A stretch of DNA of 51,828 bases. Source: Archangium sp. (GTDB lineage Bacteria > Myxococcota > Myxococcia > Myxococcales > Myxococcaceae). How positions within the stretch are numbered: position 1 is the stretch's first letter; every line of letters starts with the position of its first letter. The DNA is taken from contig JANLPS010000012.1 in assembly GCA_031367385.1 (NCBI GenBank), forward strand, positions 1 to 51,828, given 5' to 3'. A program made the position numbers and the translations under genes. The notes beneath the pieces are model-generated. The model was not told where the DNA came from. It saw only the letters and a program-made list of their open reading frames with translations, and searched no databases. Shown here piece by piece: positions 30,866 through 51,587 of the stretch.

Positions 30866-33800
30866 TTCGAGATCGACAGCGACGCCGACTCGGTGCGCGC
30901 GTTCACTTCAGACGCGTACATGTCTTCAATCGTCGCGGGAGGCGCCTTGAACGTGCCCGGAAATTGCGCCCGAACCACGTACCCGATGGTGCGCGCGCTG
31001 GCCGACCAGAAGGCCTTTTCTTCGAAGTACCAGGTCATGCGCTCGGGTGAGAACGCGCGGCGTCGAAGCGACTCGTGAGTCAACGGCAAGCGCATCGGAG
31101 CCCCTCGGTAGGCCTTGTCTTCTTGCAGCACCGTGAACCCCGCGGGAATCGGGTCTTCGACGACGTAATAGGCCGAGCGAACATCGCGCCACTTCTGCTC
31201 ATCGCGCGCATCGAAGGTGAGCTCGACGTACAGGTCGTCGCCCTGCTTGAGGCTCTCGCCCGGCAGCAGCAGCGCCTTCTCGTTCTTTCGAATCGCGTAG
31301 TACGTGCGGGTCAACGTCATGCCGTTGCTGCGCGCCTGCGCCCGGTCGAGCGGCGTGCGCACCGTCGCCTTCCATACCGCGACACCCTCGAACGGAGCGA
31401 CCTTCAGGCTCGACGCGCCCTCATCGACCTTGGAGCTGAAGCCGAAGCCCGTGCGAGCCAGCGTCACGCCGCCGCCCTCGACCTTCGGCGCCTCGACCTT
31501 CTTGAGCGCCTTCAAGTCGTGCTCGATCAACCACTGGCTGTGCAGCAACGCCGTGCCGCGATCGAACGTCGACAGATTCGAATTCGACAGCAACTGCAAC
31601 AACTTCGAGCGCAAAGGCGCGAGGTCTTCTTCTTTGTGCGTCGCCGCGTGCGCGAGAATCGCGGTGAACCCGACGTTGCGAAGCGGGTAGCGAAAGAACG
31701 CCTCGGTGTGTGGGTGAAACGCCGCGTTGGCGACGAACCGGCTGTGCGCCGTGCCCGCGAGCTTCGCGACCTGGTCTTTGAACTCGGGCTCCGCCGCGAC
31801 CTGGGCGTACTCGGCCGCGAGCACCGTCAACGCGAGTGCGTGCAAGTCGGCCTCGAGCAAGCCGCTCAACTGCGCGCGAACGCGGGCCGCCTGCTTCGGG
31901 CCCTGCAGCCGCGCCAGCACGTACGTTCGAGTCGACTCGAGCTCATCAGGCACGTCTTTTCGCCCATCGAGCCAATTCGCCGACTCGGTGAGCCGCGCAT
32001 CGTTCTTGTCGAGCAACCCGGCCTCGACCGCGTAGCCCAGCCCATCGAGCGCGATCATCGTCATCTCGAGTGAGGGCGTGGCGTACCCCGAGAACCAGAC
32101 GAACCCACCGCCCTTGACCTCGAGGTCGAGAATGCGTGCTATGCCATTGACCGCCCGGCTGCGGGCTTCGACCAGCAACTGCTGATTGTCTTTGTCGAGG
32201 GTCTCGAGCGCGTTGAGCCGGCCCAACGTACGGTACAGCGCCACGTTGGGTATGGTGGTCGACACCAGCTGCTCGATGCACCCATGCGGGTACACCAGCA
32301 GGTCGCGCGCGTTGGTCAGCGCCACATCGACCATCGTCGGCGCCAATCGCAGCTGGGCCGAGATGACTTCACTGCCGAGCGGTATCGCGAGCGACATCGA
32401 GCCGCCTCCGAGCTGCGAGACGCTGATCACCTCGTCGATGCCGGTGGGCTCGATGGTGACTCGCTTCATGTCAGAGATGGGCTCGCCGATGCCCTTCGCG
32501 TGCACGGTGAGCTGCACCTCGCCGGTCTTCGCCGCGACCAGCTCGAGCGGCACCACCGCTTCACTGCCTTTGCCCAGCGCGATCGCCTTGCTCACAGCGC
32601 CCGTCGCGACCCCGGTCAGTGCCGCGTCGAGCTGCACGGTGCCCTCCCCCGGCCCCGCCATGCCCGGAGTCACCCGGATGCTGCCCGTCGCGGTGTCACC
32701 TTGGCGCATGAACTGCGGCAGGTTCGCTGAGACGACCAGGGCTCCGCGGGTCGCGAATTCACTGGTGGTTTCGCCGAAGCGCCCCGAGGCATCGACGGCC
32801 ACGGCGGTCGCCGTCCACACCGTTTGCATCGAGTTGAGCTTGAACCGCACCGAGGCCCGGCCGTCACGATCCGTTCTCACCGCAGGGTTCCAATACACGG
32901 TGTCGTCTTCTTTTTGCCGCTTGGTCGGAGGCTTGACCGCCGCGAACGCGTGCTTCGGCATGCGGGCGAGCTTCATCGCCAGGCGATCTCCGTACCCGTA
33001 CCCTTGAAAGTCGCTCGACGAGAAGGTCGACACGTCGTCGCGGCCCTGCGGGTAGAAGAAGTCGATGATGCCGGGGCGAAGCTCGCTCTGCAGCGCGTAC
33101 ACGGCCTTGTCGACCACGCCGACCGAGACCTCGGCCTGCACCGGCTGGTTGTTCGAATCGGTCACCGTCAACGACAGGGTCTGAAAGGTCAGCGGCGCTG
33201 CTTCGACCCGCTCTGCCGTCAACCGCACCGTCAGCGCCCGCTCTCGAGGCACGACGCGAAAGGTGGCGATGCGCTCTTCCCACCGACCGGTGCTGGTCGG
33301 GTACGCGACCGAGGCGTACACCGCGCTGCCGAACCGCTTCTCGATGGGAAATCGGTAGACCAACGTCTGACCTTTCACCGAGACCCGCTCGGTCTTGAAG
33401 ATCGACGACCCAGTCAAGGTCACCCACACCGAGCCCGTCGTGCCCTCCTTCGACGCCCACGCCGCGGGGAGCAAGGCGACGAGCTCAGCAGTATCGCCCG
33501 TCTCGAGCACGCCGCCGAGCGCTTCGAGCGCCAACGCAGGCACCTGCATCACCACGTCTTGCGTGTCACCGAGCACCAGCGACGTCGCCGAATCCGCCCA
33601 TGAGTGGCCCTTCTTGTCTGCGAGCGTGACCGCGGCCTCGGCGACTCCGGGTTTGTCGGCCTTCACCTCGAGCCTCGCCACGCCGTCATCACCGGTCGAG
33701 AAGTCTTGTGGAGCCCCGACGTCGACCGATTTTCCATCGGCGCCTCGCAGGCGGTACTGCACGTGGCCAGTGGTGACACCGTAGGGCTTGCCCGACAACG

Positions 33801-35481
33801 TCGTGGCGCGAACGGTGAACTTCACGGTGTCGCCCGGCTTGACGACCTTGGCCTTCGCCGAGACGCTGCCCACCAAGTCGCTCTCGGCGAGAAACAGGTT
33901 CAGCGCGGCATTGGCGAAGGTGCCTTGATCGTCTTTGGCGCGAACCGAGAGCGAGTAGCGCCAGGGCTTGCGTTCATCGCCCCCACGAAGCGCGGGCACG
34001 TCGACCGAGATGTCGGCCTCACCTGCGGCGTCGAAGCCAGTCTCTTCTGAAGCGAACAACTTCTGCGGCACCGACAAGGTGCCCTCGTTGGTCGAGACCG
34101 TGCCGTAGGTCACCTCGCTGCCCTTGGCCCCCAACCCGGAGTCATCGACCCACGCCGGCGCGTCGACTTGCGTTCGGTAGAGAAAGTACGTGAACTTGGT
34201 ATTCGCGGGCACTCCGCCCGAGTAGCGCCGCACGCGAACATGCGCGGCCAGCTTCTGCCCCGGAGTCACCGTCTCGTCGTCGCTGAGCACCTCGACGAAG
34301 AAGGTCGGTTTCACGTACTCCTGCACGCGCATCTCGGCTTGGTGCTCGGGGCCATCGACGGTGGCGACCAGGCGCAGCACGCCGGTGTCGAGGCCCGCGG
34401 GCACGACGAGCTGGCCAGAGAACGCGCCGAACTCGTCGACCTTGAACGTGCCCTTCACCGCCGCCGTCGCCGTCGACACCAACGCGACCTGAACGTCGCG
34501 GGTCTTGGGCATGAACAGTCGCGCCAACGCATTCTCGGGCTGCCGCAACACGCCGCGAAAGCGCACCGTGTCTCGCGGTTTGTAGATCGGTCGATCGGAG
34601 TACAAGAACACGTCGGGCGCGATCGCCAGCGTCGAGAAGTAATCGGTATCGACCAGCGCGGAGTCTTCGCCCTGCGTCGCGGTCACGAGCAGCCTGGGCT
34701 CGGCCGTCTGCACCGTGGCCTCGCCATTCGCGTCAGTGGTCGCGGTCAGCGTCTTCGGCCCGGCGCGCACGTTGACCGAGACTCCGGCCTTGGCCTGTTG
34801 GTCTCGCCCCGCCACGCGCACCAGCACCTGCTGCGAGGCCTGCTTCACCACCACCGACAAATCAGAGACGACCAGCACCACCTGGCCTTCGACGGCGCCC
34901 TGCACCATCTGCACGACGTAGATGCCAGCAGGCAACGGGTCGAGCACCACGTTTCGATCTTGAAAGCCAGAGTGCCCACTCCACGCCTCGAAGCCCGGCA
35001 CGTTGAAGTCTCGCTCTGCGCCGCCCAAGTCCAAGTTGAGCCAGTGGCTGCGAAGCATCGTCATGTTCTCAGGCACGCCGACGAGCCGCTCGGGGCCTTC
35101 GGCGAGCTTCACCGGGCTCTTCGGAGCCTCAGATGACGCCTCGAGCGCGGGCACGATCGCCGCGCGAAACGGCAGGTTCAGGGCGAAGCGCAGCGTGTCT
35201 GCCGGGTTTCGAACGCCGTTGAGGCCGCGCGAGAGCGCTCGGCCCGGGTTGGCGAAGGTCGACGGCGGGTCGTACGCCCGACGCAGCGTCTCTTGCGAGG
35301 CCAGAAACGCGTCGAGGTTCTTCGGCTTGAGCACCCGCAGCTCCACCGCCTCACGCTCGGCGAATGAGACGTTGAGCAGCGGCGCCTCGTCGGTGCCATA
35401 GGTGCGCGGCACGGTGATGTAGAGCGGCTTGGCGAAAACCGACGACGCCACCAGCAGGGTCAACAGCAGAACGCGTTTCAT
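30862..35481 (-). CDS. Bacterial alpha-2-macroglobulin (YfaS/MagD-type, MG2 domain)
   Basis: SDRPIYKP, EYVKP.F.V, VGVVDKAVY, YWNP...TD..G, YPHGCIEQ, VEDPIPAG and PPATIEDMY motifs. Confidence 0.93.
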   Translation of the reverse strand: MKRVLLLTLLVASSVFAKPLYITVPRTYGTDEAPLLNVSFAEREAVELRVLKPKNLDAFLASQETLRRAYDPPSTFANPGRALSRGLNGVRNPADTLRFALNLPFRAAIVPALEASSEAPKSPVKLAEGPERLVGVPENMTMLRSHWLNLDLGGAERDFNVPGFEAWSGHSGFQDRNVVLDPLPAGIYVVQMVQGAVEGQVVLVVSDLSVVVKQASQQVLVRVAGRDQQAKAGVSVNVRAGPKTLTATTDANGEATVQTAEPRLLVTATQGEDSALVDTDYFSTLAIAPDVFLYSDRPIYKPRDTVRFRGVLRQPENALARLFMPKTRDVQVALVSTATAAVKGTFKVDEFGAFSGQLVVPAGLDTGVLRLVATVDGPEHQAEMRVQEYVKPTFFVEVLSDDETVTPGQKLAAHVRVRRYSGGVPANTKFTYFLYRTQVDAPAWVDDSGLGAKGSEVTYGTVSTNEGTLSVPQKLFASEETGFDAAGEADISVDVPALRGGDERKPWRYSLSVRAKDDQGTFANAALNLFLAESDLVGSVSAKAKVVKPGDTVKFTVRATTLSGKPYGVTTGHVQYRLRGADGKSVDVGAPQDFSTGDDGVARLEVKADKPGVAEAAVTLADKKGHSWADSATSLVLGDTQDVVMQVPALALEALGGVLETGDTAELVALLPAAWASKEGTTGSVWVTLTGSSIFKTERVSVKGQTLVYRFPIEKRFGSAVYASVAYPTSTGRWEERIATFRVVPRERALTVRLTAERVEAAPLTFQTLSLTVTDSNNQPVQAEVSVGVVDKAVYALQSELRPGIIDFFYPQGRDDVSTFSSSDFQGYGYGDRLAMKLARMPKHAFAAVKPPTKRQKEDDTVYWNPAVRTDRDGRASVRFKLNSMQTVWTATAVAVDASGRFGETTSEFATRGALVVSANLPQFMRQGDTATGSIRVTPGMAGPGEGTVQLDAALTGVATGAVSKAIALGKGSEAVVPLELVAAKTGEVQLTVHAKGIGEPISDMKRVTIEPTGIDEVISVSQLGGGSMSLAIPLGSEVISAQLRLAPTMVDVALTNARDLLVYPHGCIEQLVSTTIPNVALYRTLGRLNALETLDKDNQQLLVEARSRAVNGIARILDLEVKGGGFVWFSGYATPSLEMTMIALDGLGYAVEAGLLDKNDARLTESANWLDGRKDVPDELESTRTYVLARLQGPKQAARVRAQLSGLLEADLHALALTVLAAEYAQVAAEPEFKDQVAKLAGTAHSRFVANAAFHPHTEAFFRYPLRNVGFTAILAHAATHKEEDLAPLRSKLLQLLSNSNLSTFDRGTALLHSQWLIEHDLKALKKVEAPKVEGGGVTLARTGFGFSSKVDEGASSLKVAPFEGVAVWKATVRTPLDRAQARSNGMTLTRTYYAIRKNEKALLLPGESLKQGDDLYVELTFDARDEQKWRDVRSAYYVVEDPIPAGFTVLQEDKAYRGAPMRLPLTHESLRRRAFSPERMTWYFEEKAFWSASARTIGYVVRAQFPGTFKAPPATIEDMYASEVNARTESASLSISK

Positions 35482-37028
35482 GTGCGGAACCCCGAGGAGA
35501 CCAAGTTGCCATCGTTGCCAGCAGCGCCGGTGAAGCCCACCGAGGGCAGCTCTTCGAGCAGGCGGCGGGCGGCTTCGATCTCGGTCGAGCCGGCGGTTTG
35601 CCCAGGGTGCTCAGAGAGGTACCCGTCGAGCGCGAGCTGCGAGAGCACGTGACCCAGGTTGACGGTGAGCGAGAACGATGACTGTTTCTTGAGCCCCTGC
35701 ACCATCGGCGCGGCGGCGTGGAGCACCGAAGGCGTCGTGCCTTTGCAGGTCGATTCGAGCGTCGAGAGGTAGGCCTCGGTCGAGTACGCGAGCGTCGGGC
35801 AGCCCTGCACCTTCGCCAACTGGCCCGAGCCCTTCGTCATGGCGGTGGTGAGCGCCGCGTCGTCCTCTGCGCGCTCCCAGATGACCGCGAGCTCGTTCTT
35901 CACGGAGGCGCGCGGGTTCCAGATGACGGCGATTTGACGGGTCGGCCCCGTTGCGGGCTTGGCGGTGCCGTCGGGGCCTTTGATGAACATGTCGTGCAGC
36001 TCTTTGGGCCCGAGCGTCTCGGGCAGCTTCACTGCGAGAAAGAGCACCAGACCGGCGCTCTCGGGCACTGACTTGAGCAACGCCTCCGAAGGCTCGACCA
36101 ACGCCAGCGAACCGCGTTGAACCGTTGCGTCGACGCGCTTGGGCACGAATGAATTGTTCTCGACCGCGAAGTCGAGGCCGATGGTCTGATCGAGGCCGAG
36201 CAGGTCTCCCAAGCTCTGGGTGCCGCGACCGCCAGATTGAAGGGAGAAGACCAACGAGACCGCGACGCCTTCAGCCGGTTTGCTTTCGGTGAACGTCGCG
36301 CACATCGCCACCGCGACCGTCTGCGGAGCGGGCGCAAACACGACGCGATCGTCGAGCTTGACGCCATAGAGCGACTTGTCAGCGAGGATCAGCCGGTTGA
36401 TTTGGAGCTCTCCACCGATACCGCACGAGTACGTGAAGCCGCCTGAGCCAGCGACCTTGACCAACCCGTCGAACGCGGCCACTGCCCGGGCCGATGGAGA
36501 AGTCAGCACCAACGCCGGGGCCCCTTGCGCGCCTGCTCCACTGAACCAGACGACGCGGTAGGGCTTGTCGAGCACTTGCTTTGCGAGCAGCGAGAGCACC
36601 GTGCCCTGAAACGAGCCGCCGATGTCTTTACCACGGGTGCCGAAGAAGCCGGCCCAGGCCGCGAGAAAGCCCTGACCGAGCGGCTGCTTGAGGGCTTGGT
36701 CGAGCCACTGGTTGCTTTGCAACGCCGCGTGGGTGGCTTTGGGGTCGTGCACGTCGACCCAGAAGAGTGGCTCGCTGGTGAGGTTCGATTTCAGGTCGGG
36801 CGTTTGGAGGGTTTCGAGCTTGGTGAAGGTCGGCGCCGGGCCATCGGCCGAGTCGAACAGGCCACCGGTGTGAGGTGCCCCGTCGAGCTGCGCGTCTTCG
36901 TCGGCCTGGGCCTCGATGACGGGCGCGGTGGCTGGCCGGGTCTTCAAATAGACGCCGATACTGGCCCCGATGACGGCGACCACGGTGAGGGCGATGAGCG
37001 GCAAGCGCTTGCGAAGCTCTGGGGTCAT
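35478..37028 (-). CDS. Membrane-anchored hypothetical protein, positional YfaA/DUF2138 counterpart
   Basis: Single N-terminal TM segment; ATGA coupling on both sides within the A2M operon. Confidence 0.7.
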   Translation of the reverse strand: MTPELRKRLPLIALTVVAVIGASIGVYLKTRPATAPVIEAQADEDAQLDGAPHTGGLFDSADGPAPTFTKLETLQTPDLKSNLTSEPLFWVDVHDPKATHAALQSNQWLDQALKQPLGQGFLAAWAGFFGTRGKDIGGSFQGTVLSLLAKQVLDKPYRVVWFSGAGAQGAPALVLTSPSARAVAAFDGLVKVAGSGGFTYSCGIGGELQINRLILADKSLYGVKLDDRVVFAPAPQTVAVAMCATFTESKPAEGVAVSLVFSLQSGGRGTQSLGDLLGLDQTIGLDFAVENNSFVPKRVDATVQRGSLALVEPSEALLKSVPESAGLVLFLAVKLPETLGPKELHDMFIKGPDGTAKPATGPTRQIAVIWNPRASVKNELAVIWERAEDDAALTTAMTKGSGQLAKVQGCPTLAYSTEAYLSTLESTCKGTTPSVLHAAAPMVQGLKKQSSFSLTVNLGHVLSQLALDGYLSEHPGQTAGSTEIEAARRLLEELPSVGFTGAAGNDGNLVSSGFRT

Positions 37029-37735
37029 GACTGCCACTCCTTGAAACGAAAGAAGCCGAGAAACGAAGGGTTCGCCGCAATGGGGCGCCACTCACCGGGA
37101 GCATCGCGGGCGAGCTCGCTCAAGGTGCCGACGCGTACCGCCGAGTCTTTTTCACCGGGGTGGTAGACGACGTACGGCTCGAGGTGCGCTTTGTCGGCGG
37201 GGGTCACGACCAGCATCAAATGAAACGCGTCGCCTTCTTCGCGGGGTTGGCGAAAGCCGACGAGGTCTCCGGAGCGCAGTGATTTCAAAGCGGCGTCGTC
37301 ACGGCCCAGCGAGACGAAGCTGAAAGCGAGCAGGGTCTCGGCGTCGGCGAAGTCACTGGGGCCCCGCGCGGTCATGAAGAGGGGGCGCTTCAGGCGCTCA
37401 GGGGCGACGCGCTTGTAGGCCTGGCGGTAGGAGAAGCGAACGAGGCCCGCGCAGTCGCGCTGCTCCGAGTCCCAGTGGGGGTCGGGGGTCTTTGCTTGCG
37501 TGGTGGCCACGTCGGCGGTGACCTGACGAAGCAAGTCGACTCGAGGCTCGGCCGCGGAGGCGCTCAGCGACGTGATCAAAACCATGGCCGGTAGGCGACA
37601 AACACCTCTCATGGTGAGCCTGTCGAACCATGCACCGGGCACCCGGGCTCGTCCTTCGACAGGCTCAGGATGAGAGGGGCCGGGCTCAGGATGAGAGGGG
37701 CCGGGCTCAGGATGAGCGGGGGTTGGAACTCCCAT
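37025..37735 (-). CDS. DUF1175 (YfaT-like) protein; N-terminus includes an in-frame REP-like insertion (alternative start 37585)
   Basis: QRDCAGLVRFSY, GDLV.F, HLML, YHPG and W.P...NPSFLGFFRF motifs. Confidence 0.85.
   Translation of the reverse strand: MGVPTPAHPEPGPSHPEPGPSHPEPVEGRARVPGAWFDRLTMRGVCRLPAMVLITSLSASAAEPRVDLLRQVTADVATTQAKTPDPHWDSEQRDCAGLVRFSYRQAYKRVAPERLKRPLFMTARGPSDFADAETLLAFSFVSLGRDDAALKSLRSGDLVGFRQPREEGDAFHLMLVVTPADKAHLEPYVVYHPGEKDSAVRVGTLSELARDAPGEWRPIAANPSFLGFFRFKEWQS
37603..37720. repeat. REP-like palindrome plus 21-bp tandem repeats
   Basis: Arms CCTCTCATGGTGAGCCTGTCGAA / TTCGACAGGCTCAGGATGAGAGG; GGCTCAGGATGAG occurs three times at 21-bp spacing. Confidence 0.85.
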
Positions 37736-38637
37736 TAATCCCCGCCCTCGCCGCCTTCACCCGGGTTGGCCGCCTGCAGCGCCGCCGCGGCCTCGGCCAA
37801 ATTCTTCGGCCACCGCTCATCGGTCGGCTTCGCATCAACCCCCGGCACGTACACGAGCGCGCGCCCGCCACCGATCACGTACACCCACGCCAGCACCCGC
37901 GTGCTCCCTGGAGTCGCCAGCGGAATGTTCACCCGCCGCTTGATTTCACCCGGCGTGCCCTCGAACAGCGAAATATTCAGGCTCGCCACCGTGTGGGCCT
38001 TGTCACCACTGGGCCAATAGTTCGTCGCCACCAGGTACGTGCCCTTCGGCGGAGCCCGGTGCAGGTACAAATATGGCCCGTACCCCGGCTGATCAAAATC
38101 ACCCTGCTGCTCGTTGAGAAAGAACGTGCCGCCCGACGGGCTCGACGTATCGGCCCAGTACACGTGCGCCATCTTGGTCGGGTCGAGCCTGCCACCCGCC
38201 TCGCTCGCGTCGGTCGCCTCGTAGACGTGCAGGTCGGTGTACACGCCGTCGGTGTCGCTGGTGAGAATCACCTTCATCGGCACCGCGGGTATCTGCGCGT
38301 AGCTGGTCGCCTGTGCGCGCCCAGTGCCGGCCTTGTTCGTCGCCAGCACGGTGACCACGTTCTTCCCCGCCGCGGCGGGAAACTGCCTCGAGAACCGCCC
38401 GCCCGCAGAGCGCATCAAGTAGCGATCTCCATTGATGCTGACCGTCACCGGGTTGACGGTGCTGTCGCTCACCGTGCCCTCGACCGTGAGCATGCGCCCG
38501 ACCGACCAGCCGCCGGTGGGAGCAGACAAGGTGATGACCGGCAGCGCGGTGCCAGTGCCGATGGGCACTCCGTCGTTTCGGGGGTCGGCCAACTTCGACT
38601 GCGACAACACCAGCGTGATCAGGAGTGCGTTGACCAT
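37735..38637 (-). CDS. DUF2135 (YfaP-like) secreted protein
   Basis: Ig-like N-terminal domain; TDLHV, PGYGP, G.YLVATNYW and LFEGTP.E motifs; first gene of the A2M operon. Confidence 0.85.
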   Translation of the reverse strand: MVNALLITLVLSQSKLADPRNDGVPIGTGTALPVITLSAPTGGWSVGRMLTVEGTVSDSTVNPVTVSINGDRYLMRSAGGRFSRQFPAAAGKNVVTVLATNKAGTGRAQATSYAQIPAVPMKVILTSDTDGVYTDLHVYEATDASEAGGRLDPTKMAHVYWADTSSPSGGTFFLNEQQGDFDQPGYGPYLYLHRAPPKGTYLVATNYWPSGDKAHTVASLNISLFEGTPGEIKRRVNIPLATPGSTRVLAWVYVIGGGRALVYVPGVDAKPTDERWPKNLAEAAAALQAANPGEGGEGGD

Positions 38638-41036: not shown

Positions 41037-43361
41037 ATGACTTCGATTCGCAGCGCGCTGTGCTTGCTCGGAGCGGTTGGCCTGATCACCCCCGGTTGTG
41101 GGAGCGGCAAAGAGGTGGCCGCCACCGTATCGGCGACTCCCAGGAGCCAGCCGCTGGCATCGGCCGAGGAGATCATCGAACGGTCGCTGATGATCACCGA
41201 CCCGTCGGTGGTCGACTCGCCCGCGGCCTCATCGCGCCTCGACGACCCGAGCTCGACCGGTCTGGGCGTCTTCAGCTTCGCGCACATGATGCAGAGCCTC
41301 GCCGGGTCGCAGAACGCGAGCGCCTTCGCCGAGACGTTTCTGACCCAGCTCGCCACCCGGCAGGTGGTCAACGGGTTCGTCACCGAACCGACCTTGAGCG
41401 CCGTTCGCTCGGCGCCCGAGAACAACGAGCCGCTGACGGCGCTCAATCGCTGGTGCCGCACGTCTGATGGGCAGCTCGACCTCTCACGCGCGCCCTTTCG
41501 CCTGCTCGCCATCGTCAATCGCCCCGACTTACGCTCGAGCAGCGAAGACGTCGGTGAGCTGCGCTTCATCTACAGCTTGTTGCTCACCGACGACGCGTGT
41601 CAGACGAGCCAGTCGCCAGGGGTTCTGCCCGTCGTGCAGAGCGGCACCGGCGTCGCGGTCATCTTCGAATTCGCCCAGCCAGCGGCCAGTTGTTCAGCGG
41701 CCCATGCGCTCGCAGGCCAGTGGCAGGCGCTCGCTGATCTCGGCTTCGGCGCTGGGTACAACGCCGCGCTTCAAACCCTGACCGAAGGCGTGCTGGGCCT
41801 GCGCACCAGTGCTCGCCCGAATGGCAGTCAGCTGAACCACGTTCGAGTGAACAGCGGCAAGTCACCCTCGGAGTGGACGCTGCGCGAGTTCATGCTCGGC
41901 GGTCGCACTCCGAATTCGACCAATCAGAACCAGCTGCAGCTGGTCTCTCCGGCCGGGGCGCCTGACTTTTCGACGTTCAATGACTCGAGTGATCTCCGGG
42001 TGTTTATTTCGCAGAACCAGGCCTCGATCACGAACGGCACCTTCATGTTGAAAGCGACGCCTGACCTCTTCCAGGGCAAAGCCTTCGGAGGCGCCCAGTC
42101 CGGGCTCCTCGACCAGTGGAGCAACCAAGGCCTTCGCGACTCGACGTTCTCGTTCATGACCTGCGGCGGCTGCCACTCGCACCAAGCGAATGGCCCGCAT
42201 GTTGGCGTCAACGCCCCGTTCCCGGCGCTGGTCGGTCGAGACGTCGGCCAGCGCGCGCGTCTCTCGGCGTTCATGCTCAGCTTCGACGGCACCGATGGAG
42301 AGCTGCCCGCGCGGGTGAAGACGCTCCGCGAGATTGCCGACTCGCCGACGTGTGCCACGGTCGATGCGTTCACCGTTCTCTCGGCGAACGCTCCGCGAGA
42401 CGCGAGCCCCGGCGATGCGCTGGTGATCAACGCCATTTCGCGACCCGTCGCCGCAGAGGCGAGACAGCTGCGCTTGTACAGAGTGGGAGACTCCATCACC
42501 GCCACACCGATCAGCACCGTGAACATCGATGCGCCCGCGGGCCCGGAGTGGACCTTGTGCGCCGGCGAGGGGGGCACCTGCACGTTCTCGGGCACGAAGA
42601 CGGTCAGGTACGGTGCTGGTACGAGCTTCGTCACCCGCGTGGTGACCAGCGGCACCCCGTGCACCAACGCCGTCTTCGGAGACCCCATCTGGGGCGTCGT
42701 GAAGTCGTGCTGGTTCGATAGCAGCGTCGCGACACCGCCTCCCCCCACCGACAACTGGGTTGCGTGCGCCGGTGAGAACGAGTTCTGCGCGTTCTCGGGC
42801 ACCCGCCGGGTCAGATATGGCGCCGAGCCGAACTACTCGATTCTCACCATCACCAATGGCACCGCGTGCACCAACGGCGTCTTCGGAGACCCCATCTGGG
42901 GCATCGTGAAGTCATGCTGGTTCGAAGGCGACGTCGCGCTCAGCGGCACGCAGCTGGTCACGTTGAGCCTTCAAGTGCCCTCGGCCCCAGGCTCATACGA
43001 GGTGCGCAGCTACGCGGGGTCGACCCTCACCGCGACGAGTCGGCCCGTCAACGTCGACGTCAACCACCGCTTTGGTCTCGGTTCATCGACGTTCGTGTCG
43101 GCGGCGAGCGCGCTCTCGGTGTTTTGGTCGGCGCCTACCGACCACAGCCCAAACGACACGATCGGCGTTTATGCACAGAACGCCGACAACGGCTCGCCGA
43201 TCAACACCGTCGTCACCGGAGCGGGGACCGGGACCGACAACCTCACCGTCAACGCCCTCGTGACGCTCACGATGCCCAATCAGCCCGGCCTCTACGAGCT
43301 CCGCATGTTCCGAGCGCCTTCGAACGTGCTCGTCGCGACCGAGCTCGTCACCGTGCACTGA
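41037..43361 (+). CDS. Large lipoprotein with a CxxCH heme motif, two Cys-rich modules and Ig-like domains
   Basis: Lipobox TPGC; APFRLLAIVNRPDL; TCGGCH; duplicated W..CAGE...C.FSGT..VRYGA...CTN.VFGDPIWG.VKSCWF. Confidence 0.8.
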   Translation: MTSIRSALCLLGAVGLITPGCGSGKEVAATVSATPRSQPLASAEEIIERSLMITDPSVVDSPAASSRLDDPSSTGLGVFSFAHMMQSLAGSQNASAFAETFLTQLATRQVVNGFVTEPTLSAVRSAPENNEPLTALNRWCRTSDGQLDLSRAPFRLLAIVNRPDLRSSSEDVGELRFIYSLLLTDDACQTSQSPGVLPVVQSGTGVAVIFEFAQPAASCSAAHALAGQWQALADLGFGAGYNAALQTLTEGVLGLRTSARPNGSQLNHVRVNSGKSPSEWTLREFMLGGRTPNSTNQNQLQLVSPAGAPDFSTFNDSSDLRVFISQNQASITNGTFMLKATPDLFQGKAFGGAQSGLLDQWSNQGLRDSTFSFMTCGGCHSHQANGPHVGVNAPFPALVGRDVGQRARLSAFMLSFDGTDGELPARVKTLREIADSPTCATVDAFTVLSANAPRDASPGDALVINAISRPVAAEARQLRLYRVGDSITATPISTVNIDAPAGPEWTLCAGEGGTCTFSGTKTVRYGAGTSFVTRVVTSGTPCTNAVFGDPIWGVVKSCWFDSSVATPPPPTDNWVACAGENEFCAFSGTRRVRYGAEPNYSILTITNGTACTNGVFGDPIWGIVKSCWFEGDVALSGTQLVTLSLQVPSAPGSYEVRSYAGSTLTATSRPVNVDVNHRFGLGSSTFVSAASALSVFWSAPTDHSPNDTIGVYAQNADNGSPINTVVTGAGTGTDNLTVNALVTLTMPNQPGLYELRMFRAPSNVLVATELVTVH
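42549..42923 (+). repeat. Two direct repeats of a ~56-codon Cys-rich module (42549-42716 and 42756-42923)
   Basis: Clear DNA and protein similarity, 207-bp spacing. Confidence 0.85.
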
Positions 43362-46165: not shown

Positions 46166-47041
46166 TCACTGCAGCGGGCGGCCGCGCAATTCTTCGGCCA
46201 GCTTCAACATCTCGTGCCCTCTGGGGTGATCGCGCCGCCACACCAGGCGAAAGCTGTCTGAACGAAGCGACACTCTCGGGAGCAGCCGAACCAGCCGATT
46301 CGCCTTGAGGTCATCGCGAACGAAATACTTCGGTAACACGGCGACCCGGCCCTCTCCATCGAGCAGTCGACGGCGAATATTACCGATGCCTCCCATGTAC
46401 TCGACCCTGGCGAATGGCCACGGCTCAGCGTCTGGCTGGGCATCGAGAAAGTAGCGAAAGAGCGGCAGGTCGCGTGTCACGTCGACCAGGATGTGACGGC
46501 TTGCGTCCTCGCGCCGGCGGAGCCCCGGCTTGGCCGAGACGAAGACGTAGGCCTCCGGGTGCAGGGCGGCGTACACCACGTTCGTCGAGGTCAACCGCAT
46601 GCTGGCGATGACCGCGTCGAGGTCTCCGCGCTCGAGTCTCGAGAGCAGGTCGGGCGTGTCTCCATTGAAGAGGTGCAGCGTGCGCTCTGGGCGTGCGCGC
46701 TCGAGCACTTTGAGCGCCGGGCAGAGCCATGACACCCCAAGCTCGTACCGCGTACCGATGTCGAGCTCGAAGGGAGTCGCCCGCTCGGGCTCGCGCACGA
46801 CCGCCTTGAGCCTGGCCTCAGCCTCGAGGAGCTCGCGCGCCAGTGGGAGGAGCCTGCGTCCGATTTCGGTCAGCTCCATCTGGCGGGTCGTGCGCTCGAA
46901 GAGCGCAGCGCCGAGCTCGGCCTCGAGGCGCTGTATGCGATCAGAAAACGCCGCAGGAGACAGATACACCCGGCTGGCGGCCGCGCGGAAGTTCAAGGTG
47001 GCTCCCGCGACGTCGAAGCATCGGAGCGAGATCATGTCCAT
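46166..47041 (-). CDS. LysR family transcriptional regulator
   Basis: LNFRAAASRVYLSPAAFSDRIQRLEAELGAALFERTTR HTH plus substrate-binding domain. Confidence 0.93.
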   Translation of the reverse strand: MDMISLRCFDVAGATLNFRAAASRVYLSPAAFSDRIQRLEAELGAALFERTTRQMELTEIGRRLLPLARELLEAEARLKAVVREPERATPFELDIGTRYELGVSWLCPALKVLERARPERTLHLFNGDTPDLLSRLERGDLDAVIASMRLTSTNVVYAALHPEAYVFVSAKPGLRRREDASRHILVDVTRDLPLFRYFLDAQPDAEPWPFARVEYMGGIGNIRRRLLDGEGRVAVLPKYFVRDDLKANRLVRLLPRVSLRSDSFRLVWRRDHPRGHEMLKLAEELRGRPLQ

Positions 47042-47149
47042 TCGGCGATTATACGCACAATCTGAATAAGCACGTTCTGATAATCCCGATTTACAGTTCA
47101 GCGAGCCACGTGCTCGATTCTGCGCCGGGCCGGAAGAACGGGAGTTACA
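47042..47149. promoter_or_regulatory. Divergent promoter region, probable LysR control site
   Basis: AT-rich 108-bp gap between the divergent lysR and lipoprotein genes; GGAG RBS; exact operator not resolved. Confidence 0.45.
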
Positions 47150-47716
47150 ATGGAATCAAGCAACAAGAAGCGAATGCGGCGCGGTGGCATGGTACTGGCG
47201 CTGGGTTTGAGTGGTTGCGGGGTTGGGCCCACTGCGGTGAGCCCCAAGGCACTGGCGCCCCGCGGTGACCGGTCTGGGCTCCAGGCCTCGGTGAAGCTGA
47301 GCCTCGAGCGGCTCAGCGCGCTCCAGCTCTTCACCGTTGACCGACTGGTGATGAAGCTGCCCGACAACGCGATGGACTGTTACGGCGTGCCGTGCCCTGG
47401 TGACGCCCGGCTCGACGCCGCGTACGACGCAGAGCTCGCGCGCCAGGCCGGGCGGTTAGCGACGCTCGTTGAACAAGCCCAAGAGTGCAACAGCGGCAAC
47501 TGCTACATCTACACCTCGCCGTCTGCTGAGCAGACGGTGCGGGCGCTCAACGCGCTCGAAGTCGTTCAGGTCGGCGCCATGGTGACCGCGGAGCCTCAGA
47601 ACAACCCCAGCTGCTACAACCTGCCCTGTCAGGCTGACATCGAGGCGGCGCGGCACGAGAACGAGCGACGCGCGACGCTCGGGCTCACCATCGCGACGTA
47701 CGCCAAGGGCCTGTAG
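47150..47716 (+). CDS. Lipoprotein with internal duplication and CYxxPC motifs; putative MNIO substrate
   Basis: Lipobox LSGC; CYGVPC, CNSGNC and CYNLPC; ends 3 bp before the DUF692 gene. Confidence 0.8.
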   Translation: MESSNKKRMRRGGMVLALGLSGCGVGPTAVSPKALAPRGDRSGLQASVKLSLERLSALQLFTVDRLVMKLPDNAMDCYGVPCPGDARLDAAYDAELARQAGRLATLVEQAQECNSGNCYIYTSPSAEQTVRALNALEVVQVGAMVTAEPQNNPSCYNLPCQADIEAARHENERRATLGLTIATYAKGL

Positions 47717-47719
47717 CCC

Positions 47720-49369
47720 GTGGCGGTCCGTTTCCCACGGCGGGGGCAGAAGGGGCTCGGCGTCGGCCTCGACCTGCCGTGGGACGGAAAGACCGGCTTC
47801 GGCACTTCTCAGCGAGGTGACCTGCTGGCCCCGGGGCCTCGCGCCTTCCTGAAGAACGGGGCCGCGCGATGGGCCCATGTCTTTTTCTCGTGGCAGCCGC
47901 GCGACCGTTCGCCTCCTCGCATCGAGGAGTACCTGCCAGCCTGGGATGACCTCTTCTCAGTCGTGCCAGACCACGTGACCCGCGCGCTTCATCACACCGC
48001 GCTCAACCTGGCCTCCCTCGGGCCCTACGAGCGCGACGACCTGCTCGCCTTCACCCGCGCGCTCTGCGAGCGCTACCGACTGGAGTGGGTGAACGAAGAC
48101 GTCGGCTTTTGGTCTCTGGGCGGCCGAGCCGTGCCGTACCCGCTGCCTCCTTTGCTCAGCGACGAGGGGTTGCGCGCCACCATCGACAACGTGCTCGAGT
48201 GCCAGGCGCAGCTCCCCGTGCCGCTGGTCATCGAGTTTCCCGGGTTTTCACTGGGCGCCAGCGTGGTCGTCGGTGAAATGCATGCATATGACTTTTTTCG
48301 CGACCTCGCTGAAGCGACCAATGCACCGGTCACGCTCGACGTCGGTCACCTGCTCTCGTGGCAATGGTGGCGCGGGGGTCGCGGTGAGGCATTGCTCGCG
48401 GAGCTCGAGCGACTCCCCCTCGACCATTGTTTCGAGCTGCACCTCTCGGGCTGCGAGATCTCGGGCGAAAGGTTCATCGATGCGCACCATGGGCGCTTGC
48501 TCGACGAGCAGCTCGAGCTCGCTCAACAGCTGATGAGCCGTTGCCCCAACTTGAGAGCGATCACCTATGAAGACCCCCGCTTCGACGAACGAGGGGCACT
48601 GGTCGAGAACAACCGCTCGTCGTGGGAGCGGCTGCAACGGCTCACCGCGGACTGGGAAGGCGAGACGGGCGCGCCGCAGGCGTCGAGCCTGACCCGGGCG
48701 CCGTGCTCGAGGCCCGACCTGAGGTGGGGCGCGGGGGTTGAGGCAGACCTTGGCGACGCCTTGTTCGGCGCAGTGACCGAGCCGTCGTTCGACGGGGTGC
48801 AGGTTGAAGCCGAAGCGATGAGTGTGGTGCGCACGATGGTGCTCGAGCGGCGCTACCGAGGCACCGGTGGCCTGCGCGAGTGGTACCCGGGAACGGTGGC
48901 CGCCTGGCTCGAGCGCCACCCCGACGACGCATCACTCCAGCTGATGGCAGCGCGGTTTTGTGCCTCGACTGCCGGCTCGTCATGGCGAGAGCACTCGAAC
49001 GCCCAGCTCGGCCTCTCGCTCGAAGAGGCGCTCTTCTGCTTTTTCGAGAGCGAGGGCGTTGGCGATGCGGCGGTGCGTGAAGAGGAGATGCTCGGGGCTG
49101 TCGTACGCGCCCTGGCGGTGGCTCCGCGCGCGAGCTTCACTTGGCCGGCTCAAGTGCGGGCGACCAAGACGGGCTGCGTCGCCCTCAGCGGCAGATTGGT
49201 GATGCACGCATCAACCGCAGGGCAGTACGTGCGAGGAGAGGTCACCCCGCTGATTGCCACCCTGCTTCAGGGAGTCAGCGTTGGAGAAGCCGCCGCGCGT
49301 TTCGAGGCTCCTTTCGGCGAGGTCGGCCAGGTTCACGCGCAGCTGCAGGCCCTGGGCTTCATCACGTGA
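47720..49369 (+). CDS. DUF692/MNIO-family enzyme fused to a DUF2063/RRE-like C-terminal region
   Basis: GLGVGL start; WVNED, LPPL, PLVIEFP, TLDVGHL, ELHLSG, IDAH and ITYE motifs in DUF692 order; ~240-aa extension. Confidence 0.8.
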   Translation: MAVRFPRRGQKGLGVGLDLPWDGKTGFGTSQRGDLLAPGPRAFLKNGAARWAHVFFSWQPRDRSPPRIEEYLPAWDDLFSVVPDHVTRALHHTALNLASLGPYERDDLLAFTRALCERYRLEWVNEDVGFWSLGGRAVPYPLPPLLSDEGLRATIDNVLECQAQLPVPLVIEFPGFSLGASVVVGEMHAYDFFRDLAEATNAPVTLDVGHLLSWQWWRGGRGEALLAELERLPLDHCFELHLSGCEISGERFIDAHHGRLLDEQLELAQQLMSRCPNLRAITYEDPRFDERGALVENNRSSWERLQRLTADWEGETGAPQASSLTRAPCSRPDLRWGAGVEADLGDALFGAVTEPSFDGVQVEAEAMSVVRTMVLERRYRGTGGLREWYPGTVAAWLERHPDDASLQLMAARFCASTAGSSWREHSNAQLGLSLEEALFCFFESEGVGDAAVREEEMLGAVVRALAVAPRASFTWPAQVRATKTGCVALSGRLVMHASTAGQYVRGEVTPLIATLLQGVSVGEAAARFEAPFGEVGQVHAQLQALGFIT

Positions 49370-49443: not shown

Positions 49444-51471
49444 CTAGAACCGAATCGAGCCCGAGATCATCACTTCGACGTTCTGACCGAAGTGCTTGAT
49501 CTTGCCGTCCGGGAACACGCTCTTCACCCCCACGCTCAGGTCGGAGTTCTTGCCCATGAACTTCACCGCGACCCCGATGGTGTCGATGGGCACCAGCTTG
49601 TGGTCGACCGTTCGGCCCTGCGCGACGATGCCGAAGTCGACCTTCCCGCTCCCGGGAGACACGGTGAGAATCGCGTGGTGCTCTTCGGTGGGCATGGTCT
49701 GCGAGTCGTACGGCTTCGAGAGCCGCGCCGCGCCACCCGCCTCGAAGCGGGTCACCGTGCCGTTGTCGGCCGTGTGCGTCAGCGCCATCGCGACCTCGGC
49801 GCGCCCGGCATCGGCACCCAGGCTTCGCACCGCGCTCTTGCCTCCGCTGGTGACCAGCTCGGTCGCGGCGTTGATCATGTCGGCCTGGTAGCGGCCCTTG
49901 ACCGCCCAATCGAGCGTCAGCTTGTCGCTCAGCTGCTCGCGGCCGCCAATGGTGCCATCGAGCCCGACCACGGCCTTCGAGTAGTCCGCCATCTCTCCAA
50001 TGGGCACCACGAAGCGGCCCTGCCCTGATGCCATCGGCAACCCAGCCTGCACATCGGCATCGCCGCCCGCGGTCACGGTCAGGTGCTGCCCGATGAGCTG
50101 CTTCTCTTTGGTCTCGAGCCGCCCATCGAGCTTCGCGCCGATGACGTAGGTTCGAAAGTCGACCCGATCTTCGAGGCCGCGCACTCCGGTGCGGGGGCTG
50201 ATGTTCGAGACCTCGGTGCCGACGCCGAGCGCCGCACGCACCCAGCCGCGGGTGTTCTCGCCTTCGAAATCTTTGTGGTAGTTGAGCTGCAACCCGCCGG
50301 TCATGCCGTTCTCGCTCTTCGGCCCGCTGTTGGCGGTGAGCGAGAGGCGGTCGGTCAAGAACACGGTGCCGGTCTTCGAGCCATCTGAGGTAGCGCTCGC
50401 GCGAACTTCGCCCTTGGTGCCCTCGCCAGGGTCGGCGGCGAACATCGTGTTGATGGTCTCGGCGCCCAGCACCTCGTGGTTGTTGATCACGGGCTTATCG
50501 TTCCACCCGCGCAGGGTGTAGCGCGTCACCCCGGGTATATCGCCGACCGTGTCTTGCATCGCGTCGAGCGCGGTGTCGCTGCCCAGCGCGTATCGCTTCG
50601 AGTACTCGAGCGAGTTCCACTTACCGGTGGCGGGGTCTTTGTAGACCATGAAGTCGTGGTACTCGGCGCCGGTGGCGAAGCCGACCGACTGCACGTCAGC
50701 CTCGCGGCCCGTCGGAGCGCCCGCTACCGTGACCCCTTGCGCGTTCTTGGTCGCGTTCATCAGCGAGGCCAGAATCGCCGCCGTCGCCGAGTGAATGTCG
50801 CGGCACACCCCTGAGCGCGAGCCCAACGTCTCATTGGGCGACTGCGTGGTGACCGAGCTGCCCTTGGCGCGTGCGGTGTTGTAGGCGATGCCCTGGTTGG
50901 TGTCGGCCACCCAGTTGAGCGCGTTGAGAATCGCGGTGCGGTTCTGCTCGGTGTTGCTCGCGTCGAACTTGCCGTACTTCTTGGCCAGCACGGCGGCGAC
51001 CTGCTGCGCGGCGTCGGGGGCGCCCGAGGCCAGAATCGCCTTCACCTCGGGTGGCGCATCGGCCTTGCCCACGCGAACCGAGTTGGGGTCGAGGTCTCGC
51101 TTGCCGCGGGTCACTGGCTGGCTCAGCGCGGCGGTGCCCAGGGCCAGGTTCGGTATCGCGTCGATGACGCTTCGGCCCGCGCTGGCGTTGTTGAGCGGTG
51201 AGCCCATATACGAGCCGCGGTTGCCGCCAGTGAGGTCGACCGGCTTCTTGGCTGCGGGGGCGCTCGAGCCTGACAGCGCCGCGGCGATGGTCGCTCCGTC
51301 GTCGAACGAGTCGAGAAAGCGCAGCGAGACCGGCTGATCTTCTTTCGCGTTCTTGACGATCGTCTCGATCGCCAGCCGGGTCTCCGGTTTGAGCGGAGCT
51401 CCCGCGTCGGCTTGCCGAAGCAGCGCGCGCAGTGATTCGAGCGACGTGGTGGTGTTCTGCACTGAAGCCAT
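49444..51471 (-). CDS. Transglutaminase-like domain protein with beta-strand-rich C-terminal half
   Basis: SPNETL...GVCRDIH and downstream HDF motifs; ends ISGSIRF; GAGG RBS before ATG 51471. Confidence 0.7.
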   Translation of the reverse strand: MASVQNTTTSLESLRALLRQADAGAPLKPETRLAIETIVKNAKEDQPVSLRFLDSFDDGATIAAALSGSSAPAAKKPVDLTGGNRGSYMGSPLNNASAGRSVIDAIPNLALGTAALSQPVTRGKRDLDPNSVRVGKADAPPEVKAILASGAPDAAQQVAAVLAKKYGKFDASNTEQNRTAILNALNWVADTNQGIAYNTARAKGSSVTTQSPNETLGSRSGVCRDIHSATAAILASLMNATKNAQGVTVAGAPTGREADVQSVGFATGAEYHDFMVYKDPATGKWNSLEYSKRYALGSDTALDAMQDTVGDIPGVTRYTLRGWNDKPVINNHEVLGAETINTMFAADPGEGTKGEVRASATSDGSKTGTVFLTDRLSLTANSGPKSENGMTGGLQLNYHKDFEGENTRGWVRAALGVGTEVSNISPRTGVRGLEDRVDFRTYVIGAKLDGRLETKEKQLIGQHLTVTAGGDADVQAGLPMASGQGRFVVPIGEMADYSKAVVGLDGTIGGREQLSDKLTLDWAVKGRYQADMINAATELVTSGGKSAVRSLGADAGRAEVAMALTHTADNGTVTRFEAGGAARLSKPYDSQTMPTEEHHAILTVSPGSGKVDFGIVAQGRTVDHKLVPIDTIGVAVKFMGKNSDLSVGVKSVFPDGKIKHFGQNVEVMISGSIRF

Positions 51472-51587
51472 AGGTGACCTCGAACGCACCGAGTTACTCC
51501 GGCCCGCGTGGCCAGACAACTCAGGCGCGCATTCTCAGGCGGTGAGAATACCCAGATCTGCCAAAAATGACGGTTTGGCGAGCCGAT

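Follow-up and report, generated by a model that had tools for sequence, protein, structure and literature searches.

PbsC, the oxidase of the biphenomycin-like pathway that depends on several non-heme iron ions (multinuclear non-heme iron oxidase, MNIO), reportedly converts Phe to ortho-Tyr. In the abstract of PMC12257519 the sequence FHAFRF, MNIO and ortho-hydroxylation are all named, and the main text of PMC12452194 counts Phe among the MNIO-modified residues and PbsC among the enzymes with partners of PME-type 2. In the DAG-RiPPs DybA/DybH and NedA/NedBC (RiPPs are peptides made by the ribosome and modified after translation), as presented in passages of PMC13056109, the gene of a cytoplasmic MNIO lies beside that of a lipoprotein processed by signal peptidase II (SPII), the product remains full length and membrane-anchored, and the accessory domain is fused or split by lineage. 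An Archangium sp. (contig JANLPS010000012.1; the whole stretch of 51,828 nt that was analysed is the window) encodes at 46166..49369 a LysR-type regulator, a lipoprotein with two repeats and an MNIO, a system that shares traits with both groups and is described in the following.

In the reading favoured here, the biphenomycin-type MNIO of this LysR-linked operon would dock on the leader-like part of each lipoprotein repeat and hydroxylate the Tyr of the C-Y-x-x-P-C motif. The reading as a whole is tentative, with a probability of roughly 0.45; that the lipoprotein is the substrate of the MNIO is probable, because enzyme, partner domain and leader all point to a shared ancestry with the biphenomycin-like systems, and this is the main evidence. 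The gene arrangement had been given correctly in an earlier note: lysR is divergent from a two-gene unit (distance to the lipoprotein gene 108 bp), and the gap between lipoprotein gene and enzyme gene is only 3 bp (TAG-CCC-GTG). The 549-aa protein encoded at 47720-49369 on the plus strand comprises both the MNIO and its partner. The features are as follows:

46166..47041, minus strand: lysR, a LysR-type regulator of 291 aa; HTH_1 (PF00126) and LysR_substrate (PF03466) both above cut-off
47050..47091, no strand: two imperfect, conserved dyads between lysR and the lipoprotein gene, from an alignment of 8 intergenic regions
47150..47716, plus strand: lipoprotein of 188 aa with two repeats, likely MNIO substrate; open reading frame (ORF) with lipobox
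47207..47218, plus strand: lipobox LSGC with Cys23, from sequence and family conservation
47297..47347, plus strand: leader-like motif 1, residues 50-66; with a profile of both motifs, the leaders of four biphenomycin-like precursors are found
47378..47395, plus strand: core motif 1, CYGVPC, with C77 and Y78 at +11 and +12, counted from where the leader ends; repeat alignment
47531..47581, plus strand: leader-like motif 2, residues 128-144, from the same two-motif profile
47612..47629, plus strand: core motif 2, CYNLPC, with C155 and Y156; repeat alignment
47720..48664, plus strand: catalytic TIM barrel of the MNIO, biphenomycin (Pbs)-type by PF05114, predicted fold, conserved columns and tree
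48722..49369, plus strand: fused partner domain with a helical part and a predicted end resembling a RiPP recognition element (RRE), from partner profile and predicted secondary structure

That the enzyme belongs to DUF692, as had been proposed from its motifs, was borne out by the PF05114 search (residues 84-281, E 4.7e-17, 62.6 bits versus a cut-off of 25) and by the AlphaFold model (pLDDT, the predicted score in the local distance difference test, 95), in which residues 1-315 form a TIM barrel with TglH (E 1e-11) and MbnB (E 4e-10) as best Foldseek matches; superposed on TglH it reaches Z 22.7 with an rmsd of 3.2 over 270 aligned residues. The metal ligands are likely H91, D127, E172, D207, H241, D254, H256 and E284, with roles assigned partly by alignment to 8hci and 3bww and partly from general background; in 90 homologs these columns are invariant or nearly so and follow the order of the MNIO family, and Asp127 stands for one usual His, as it does in the enzymes of biphenomycin-like (Pbs-like) clusters. 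The NCBIfam subfamily cut-offs were not reached (ApyH 57.7 versus 400, BufB 52.4 versus 310, ChrH 19.8 versus 600 bits), and as there was also no match to a DUF2282, EGKCG or CPxCGxG precursor, an identity as bufferin, oxazolin or chryseobasin system was rejected.

The enzyme is 44-49% identical to the MNIOs of biphenomycin-like clusters and 23% identical to the bufferin-like MNIO of the same genome. In a search of plasmids, five records from the Bacillus cereus group were found at 44% identity and one from Streptomyces sp. N50 at 45%. The Bacillus pseudomycoides MNIO (44%, E 9e-89) is encoded in a plasmid cluster (L064:5836-13926) of precursor (FHAFRF), radical S-adenosylmethionine (SAM) enzyme, MNIO, partner, UPF0489, TldD and a JmjC hydroxylase, and the unannotated Streptomyces sp. 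N50 plasmid (L065:5730-11478) encodes a YHTYTY precursor, a radical SAM enzyme, an MNIO, a partner and another radical SAM enzyme, of the B12 type. The MNIOs of two further genomes (G098 and G169; 49%) lie in clusters of precursor, [HExxH], major facilitator superfamily transporter, B12 radical SAM enzyme, MNIO, partner and HExxH, with precursors that end in FHAFKF. The cores of these four Pbs-like precursors (FHAFRF, FHAFKF, YHTYTY) are all free of Cys, and the Streptomyces core means that cores with Tyr exist within the clade. In a tree computed for 26 catalytic domains, which do not include PbsC and BipE themselves and in which four other MNIOs, all on long branches, serve as outgroup, 18 lipoprotein-linked and the four Pbs-like enzymes form one branch (support 99/100, length 1.73); inside it the four Pbs-like enzymes group together (94/89), and the base of the branch is unresolved. 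All of the ten motif blocks are common to lipoprotein-linked and Pbs-like enzymes, including E-D for S-D-H and DxxH for DxxN.

As to these relatives, an MNIO near-identical to that of B. pseudomycoides is found on four other B. cereus-group plasmids, and the clusters of G098 (L057:5520-14933) and G169 (L056:6628-13236), both Myxococcota, have one or two HExxH beta-hydroxylases, Lys in place of Arg in the core, no arginase-like gene that was seen, and in L057 also TldD. A Streptomyces europaeiscabiei plasmid (L066:506-9623) encodes a 533-aa MNIO with genes for YcaO, a metallo-beta-lactamase-type (MBL) hydrolase, an acyl-protein synthase and an acyl-CoA reductase, and a small ORF in which FPFR is repeated four times; this locus looks like an undescribed RiPP cluster. 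The Archangium genome itself has three further MNIO genes (G000:C558, C438, C247; L052-L054), one bufferin-like and the one on C247 of ~500 aa, and in one of the compared loci (L001:3221-4883) the MNIO is broken by a frameshift near residue 140, which may be an assembly error or a pseudogene.

Residues ~335-549 of the enzyme are a fused partner domain; the partner protein that had been considered necessary is thus present, but its fusion had gone unrecognised in the earlier note. Fusion is found in the close clade of the window's enzyme and in L009/L010, and a separate ORF 3' of the MNIO gene encodes the partner in L007, L011, L012, L016, L018, L021 and L022. A profile of the domain, built without the Pbs-like rows, matches the partner in each of the four Pbs-like clusters (E from 2e-13 to 2e-20), with zero matches among the ORFs of four other MNIO loci and none to the bufferin-like partner of the same genome; 0/18 members match PF09836 (DUF2063). 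The C-terminal end, by the secondary structure of the enzyme model, has strands followed by three helices, there are weak winged-helix Pfam matches, and Atlas features point weakly (0.84-0.89) to DUF2063/NGO1945_C/PqqD clusters; this end may be RRE-like.

The third line of evidence is the leader. With a profile of 17 columns made from 186 lipoprotein repeat segments, the best window is the leader in 4/4 Pbs-like precursors, always in one register. As few as 7, 3, 10 and 10 of 20,000 shuffles score as high (p 1.5-5e-4 each), as do 3 to 70 of 2.17 million windows of the own genome, and the leader windows rank 1, 2, 1 and 2 among about 34,000-38,000 six-frame windows per locus. The profile of either repeat alone finds the same windows, and control profiles of the following helix and of the linker do not find the precursor leaders. 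Enzyme, partner and leader point in this way to a common ancestry with the biphenomycin-like systems.

The linkage of the genes is strict. Of 24 loci fetched, three were duplicates, and in 21/21 distinct loci the MNIO gene lies directly 3' of the lipoprotein gene, with only the first ~30 MNIO codons visible at the contig end in L017 and L024 (29 residues in L024). Among 401 genomes of the phylum, a set that overlaps with the loci, a lipoprotein match occurs in at least 12, which is a lower bound, as eight lipoprotein candidates were scored per genome, and an MNIO match adjoins it in 12/12, in agreement with the expected co-occurrence of the homologs. Fifteen genomes have the MNIO subfamily of the enzyme, 13 of them with the lipoprotein in front (the 12 and a divergent one in G372) and two with FHAFKF clusters; the system is rare and patchy in the phylum. 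Outside the genes of the system, none is shared by more than two of the 24 compared loci, and therefore a protease, an exporter or an extra tailoring enzyme is not part of the core system; that protease and transporter genes are missing nearby had been noticed before. Nor are copper-related, DoxX, radical SAM or oxidoreductase/electron-transfer partner genes conserved nearby in the 24 loci.

It is unlikely that the lipoprotein is not modified and serves as a binding, immunity or decoy protein, with the enzyme acting on a peptide or protein encoded elsewhere. Its predicted fold is stable (pLDDT 85) and could hide the leaders, and enzyme and mature lipoprotein end in different compartments, but in all loci the lipoprotein stands where a precursor would, immediately ahead of the MNIO, no radical SAM, protease or exporter gene is conserved nearby, and when the 6,379 likely coding ORFs of this genome were scanned with the leader profile, none but the lipoprotein exceeded 17 bits. 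Lipoproteins of the Sec/SPII route meet cytoplasmic enzymes before export, which is why the pre-protein is probably unfolded at this stage and the folded substrate assumed in the earlier note is doubtful. Modification before export has likewise been proposed for DybA, as stated in a passage of PMC13056109.

The duplication inside the lipoprotein, already noticed, is real: the two halves align with 33% identity over 39 residues (E 4e-8). Family-model searches in Pfam and NCBIfam gave no match, a word-indexed search yielded 41 proteins, of which the named ones are from Myxococcota, and with a profile 290 clusters (at 50% identity) were obtained. In 150 full-length members (the best 150 of the 290 clusters) the lipobox Cys23 is conserved in 98%, C77/Y78/C82 of core 1 in 97/97/99% and C155/Y156/C160 of core 2 in 97/97/98%; a rule-based lipobox is present in 142/161 members of at least 160 aa. 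The middle pair C113/C118 is conserved in only 24/28% of the 150 and for this reason was rejected as a family feature. Among 183 proteins most have two CY-x1-3-C motifs and six have four. Each repeat is composed of a helix-strand motif (L-x-x-L-x-A-L-[EQD]-[IV]-[VF]-x-V-x-x-L), a Pro-bearing linker, C-Y-[GN]-x-P-C and a long helix, and the AlphaFold 2 model (pLDDT 85) is mostly helical with strands at 61-66 and 139-144. A clear relative of the fold was absent both in Foldseek (no match at E<=0.001) and in VIA (best Z 4.8), with Atlas features at most 0.76, results that do not establish a new fold.

Several lipoproteins deviate from this layout. Forms with four repeats (P0164-P0170, P0176, P0182, P0210) have 340-420 aa and are very acidic, two divergent ones (L058:7175-7864 of G375 and L059:3485-4255 of G416) carry WIPYGG[FY]W without Cys in repeat 1 and CY[ST]SW in repeat 2, and the one of G372 (L082) has Cys-rich variant motifs in which Tyr is still kept.

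In the favoured model each repeat would be a unit of leader and core. In the cytoplasm, the partner/RRE domain would grip the still unfolded pre-protein at residues 50-66 and 128-144, and the iron centre would hydroxylate an aromatic C-H at Y78 and Y156 (+16 Da each), the sister enzymes reportedly acting on Phe. Export by Sec and lipidation at Cys23 by Lgt/LspA, an established pathway, would follow; the leaders would stay uncut and fold into the mature domain, and each Cys pair would form a disulfide, closing a loop on which the dihydroxy-aromatic residue is presented in the envelope. By way of speculation, the product might bind a metal or serve as a redox/quinone site, and LysR might sense an inducer; such a metal or redox role in the envelope is guesswork, and none of the findings hints at copper.

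Aromatic hydroxylation is favoured because of the kinship of the enzyme with biphenomycin-type MNIOs, and for the same reason the Cys modification with copper binding that the earlier note preferred is disfavoured: the enzyme groups with the MNIOs of Cys-free cores, not with the bufferin type. With substrate and docking the same, the Cys at +11 could be oxidised to a thiooxazole, an oxazolone-thioamide or a Chr-like two-Cys macrocycle, giving a copper-binding lipoprotein. This is kept as an option because of the register and of general MNIO statistics, but is rather improbable. Both Cys are 97-99% conserved, the Cys at +11 is in register with the second Phe in FHAFRF, and seven of the 378 repeats analysed keep both Cys without Tyr; according to the main text of PMC12452194 and passages of PMC13056109, most MNIO substrates are modified at Cys, lipidated Cys-modified products exist, and C-x4-C resembles the CxxxxC precursors and the CPxCGxG of ChrA. 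Against this stand the Cys-free cores of the nearest enzymes, the low identity to the bufferin-like MNIO and the low score of the ChrH model already given, the lack of a conserved copper-related or DoxX gene nearby, and the repeat 1 of G375 and G416, which is free of Cys and has Tyr at +12 beside an unbroken MNIO domain of an enzyme 50% identical to that of the window; paired Cys in exported proteins are moreover readily explained as disulfides.

The remaining repeats divide into 348 complete ones (CY with second Cys), six with CY but no near second Cys, two degenerate ones, and 15 with a Tyr not preceded by Cys, of which six, repeat 1 of G375 and G416 among them, have no Cys at all; in 318/378 the core window has its first Tyr at +12. 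Protein-derived Cys-Tyr and quinone cofactors exist, and a capture of the adjacent thiol by the oxidised aromatic ring, to a Cys-Tyr thioether or cysteinyl-quinone cofactor, would suit the Cys next to Tyr in 354/378 repeats and the CY pair kept where the second Cys is lost (repeat 2 of G375 and G416; G372), but it is the least probable alternative, as a bond from i to i+1 would be strained, the neighbourhood has no conserved oxidoreductase or electron-transfer partner, and both Cys-free and Tyr-free repeats exist.

Several points weigh against Tyr hydroxylation and the kinship behind it. The aromatic residues of the FxF/YxY cores stand at +9 and +11 from the leader end, whereas the lipoprotein has Cys at +11 and Tyr at +12, a register that fits Cys at least as well as Tyr, and conservation in the aligned repeats does not separate Tyr from Cys as target. 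The precursors score only 4-13 bits with the leader profile, far under the lipoprotein family median of 33, the leader segment was picked after the likeness had been noticed by eye, and the four precursors are kin, two of them nearly orthologous. The clusters are called Pbs-like by likeness, and identity with the characterised pbs or bip cluster is established for none of them. The RRE-like end had no Pfam or PDB sequence match (0 matches in a PDB search with the partner profile). At position 125 all 18 lipoprotein-linked enzymes have Asn and all four Pbs-like ones Val, so the pockets are not identical, and MNIOs 40% identical can differ in product, as DybH and ChrH do according to a passage of PMC13056109.

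Compared with the biphenomycin-like systems (Pbs/Bip), the MNIO clade, the motif substitutions, a homologous partner and a leader motif at a similar distance from the core are the same. Here, however, genes for a radical SAM enzyme, an arginase-like protein, a hydroxylase, TldD and a transporter are missing, the probable substrate is an exported lipoprotein of 188 aa in which leader-core units occur internally, two of them or in some members four, the core is CYxxPC and not FxF, the partner is often fused, and there is a dedicated LysR. A short FxF-core precursor with a B12 radical SAM enzyme is neither present in the window nor conserved in the 24 loci, and a biphenomycin-like cluster as identity was rejected on this ground.

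A lipoprotein in place of a short peptide, as the earlier note had it, holds as the layout of the system but not as a novelty, since MNIO-modified lipoproteins have been published with the DAG-RiPPs and passages of PMC13056109 also describe MelA1, a 34-kDa MNIO substrate by which large protein substrates are possible. Judged from its genes, the system is one that works like a DAG-RiPP system with an enzyme of the Pbs-type subfamily: the DAG-RiPP enzymes in these passages are of the ChrH or HvfB type and act on CPxCGxG or EGKCG, whereas here a Pbs-type enzyme goes with a two-repeat domain. The family is not among the DAG-RiPPs described there, the survey of which mined ORFs of 50-160 aa and therefore excluded it. 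With the bufferins, oxazolins and CxxxxC precursors of the main text of PMC12452194 the system shares paired Cys and the order of signal-peptide precursor, MNIO and partner, and among Buf2 there are duplicated forms and some 16% lipoproteins; the system differs in the distant enzyme, in the lack of DoxX and sigma factor genes, and in a partner without DUF2063 match, by which it departs from the tie between signal-peptide precursors and DUF2063 partners in that text. 'Myxococ' and 'LysR' are absent from the same main text, and CYNLPC, CYGVPC and CYNVPC from the rows covered of its two spreadsheets, which may hold accessions only. The lipoprotein family was not found in the literature searched; Fig. 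S3 of PMC12452194, the supplements of PMC13056109 and the full texts on biphenomycin (PMC12257519, PMC12707348) may still mention the clade.

Of the proposed link to LysR, the association has stood, and control remains a likely extension. A LysR of 44-83% identity is found in 9/21 distinct loci, divergent or in line and in three gene arrangements, whereas other LysRs of the same genome reach at most 34% over at least 140 residues; the G372 locus has the divergent lipoprotein together with this LysR, and five loci with some flank (L004, L005, L009, L010, L018) are without it. Co-inheritance of the LysR with the system is supported by these comparisons, the regulator presumably controls the operon, and the two conserved dyads in the gap are likely its binding sites; a sigma-70 consensus promoter was not found between lysR and the lipoprotein gene. 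At L024:1-345 the N-terminus of LysR is joined to a lipoprotein repeat in one ORF, probably by misassembly.

As to its meaning, it is conceivable, though somewhat less probable than the favoured reading itself, that an antibiotic-type leader-core unit was duplicated into a folded lipoprotein in which the leaders have become structural, and that the MNIO installs dihydroxy-aromatic or Cys-Tyr/quinone residues, which would make the 290 clusters (at 50% identity) a new family of myxobacterial envelope proteins that carry metal or redox cofactors of their own. The antibiotic pathways may also derive from a lipoprotein-tailoring system, because the four Pbs-like enzymes fall within the unresolved spread of the lipoprotein-linked ones. 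If true, aromatic-hydroxylating MNIO chemistry would extend from small antibiotic precursors to full-length lipoproteins, RiPP leaders would serve as internal, retained and repeated docking sites, and biphenomycin-like RiPPs and DAG-RiPPs, which have been described separately, would become linked; the 17-residue motif would then be a portable tag by which proteins could be hydroxylated at a chosen Tyr. With two genes and an enzyme of one chain, the system lends itself to testing, and the pair of sister enzymes is a natural one for finding what sets the residue choice of MNIOs.

The transglutaminase-like gene that follows the system (49444-51519, 691 aa, DUF553) is not beside it in other loci, and this gene and an RNase II gene were rejected as parts of the system, with no counterpart in L001-L024 or in the loci of other genomes. 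Elsewhere the window has a predicted lipoprotein of 774 aa (41037-43361) with a CGGCH motif and no Pfam match, and an ordinary bacterial alpha-2-macroglobulin gene (30862-38637) with a DUF2135 gene nearby; GC content is even throughout the window.

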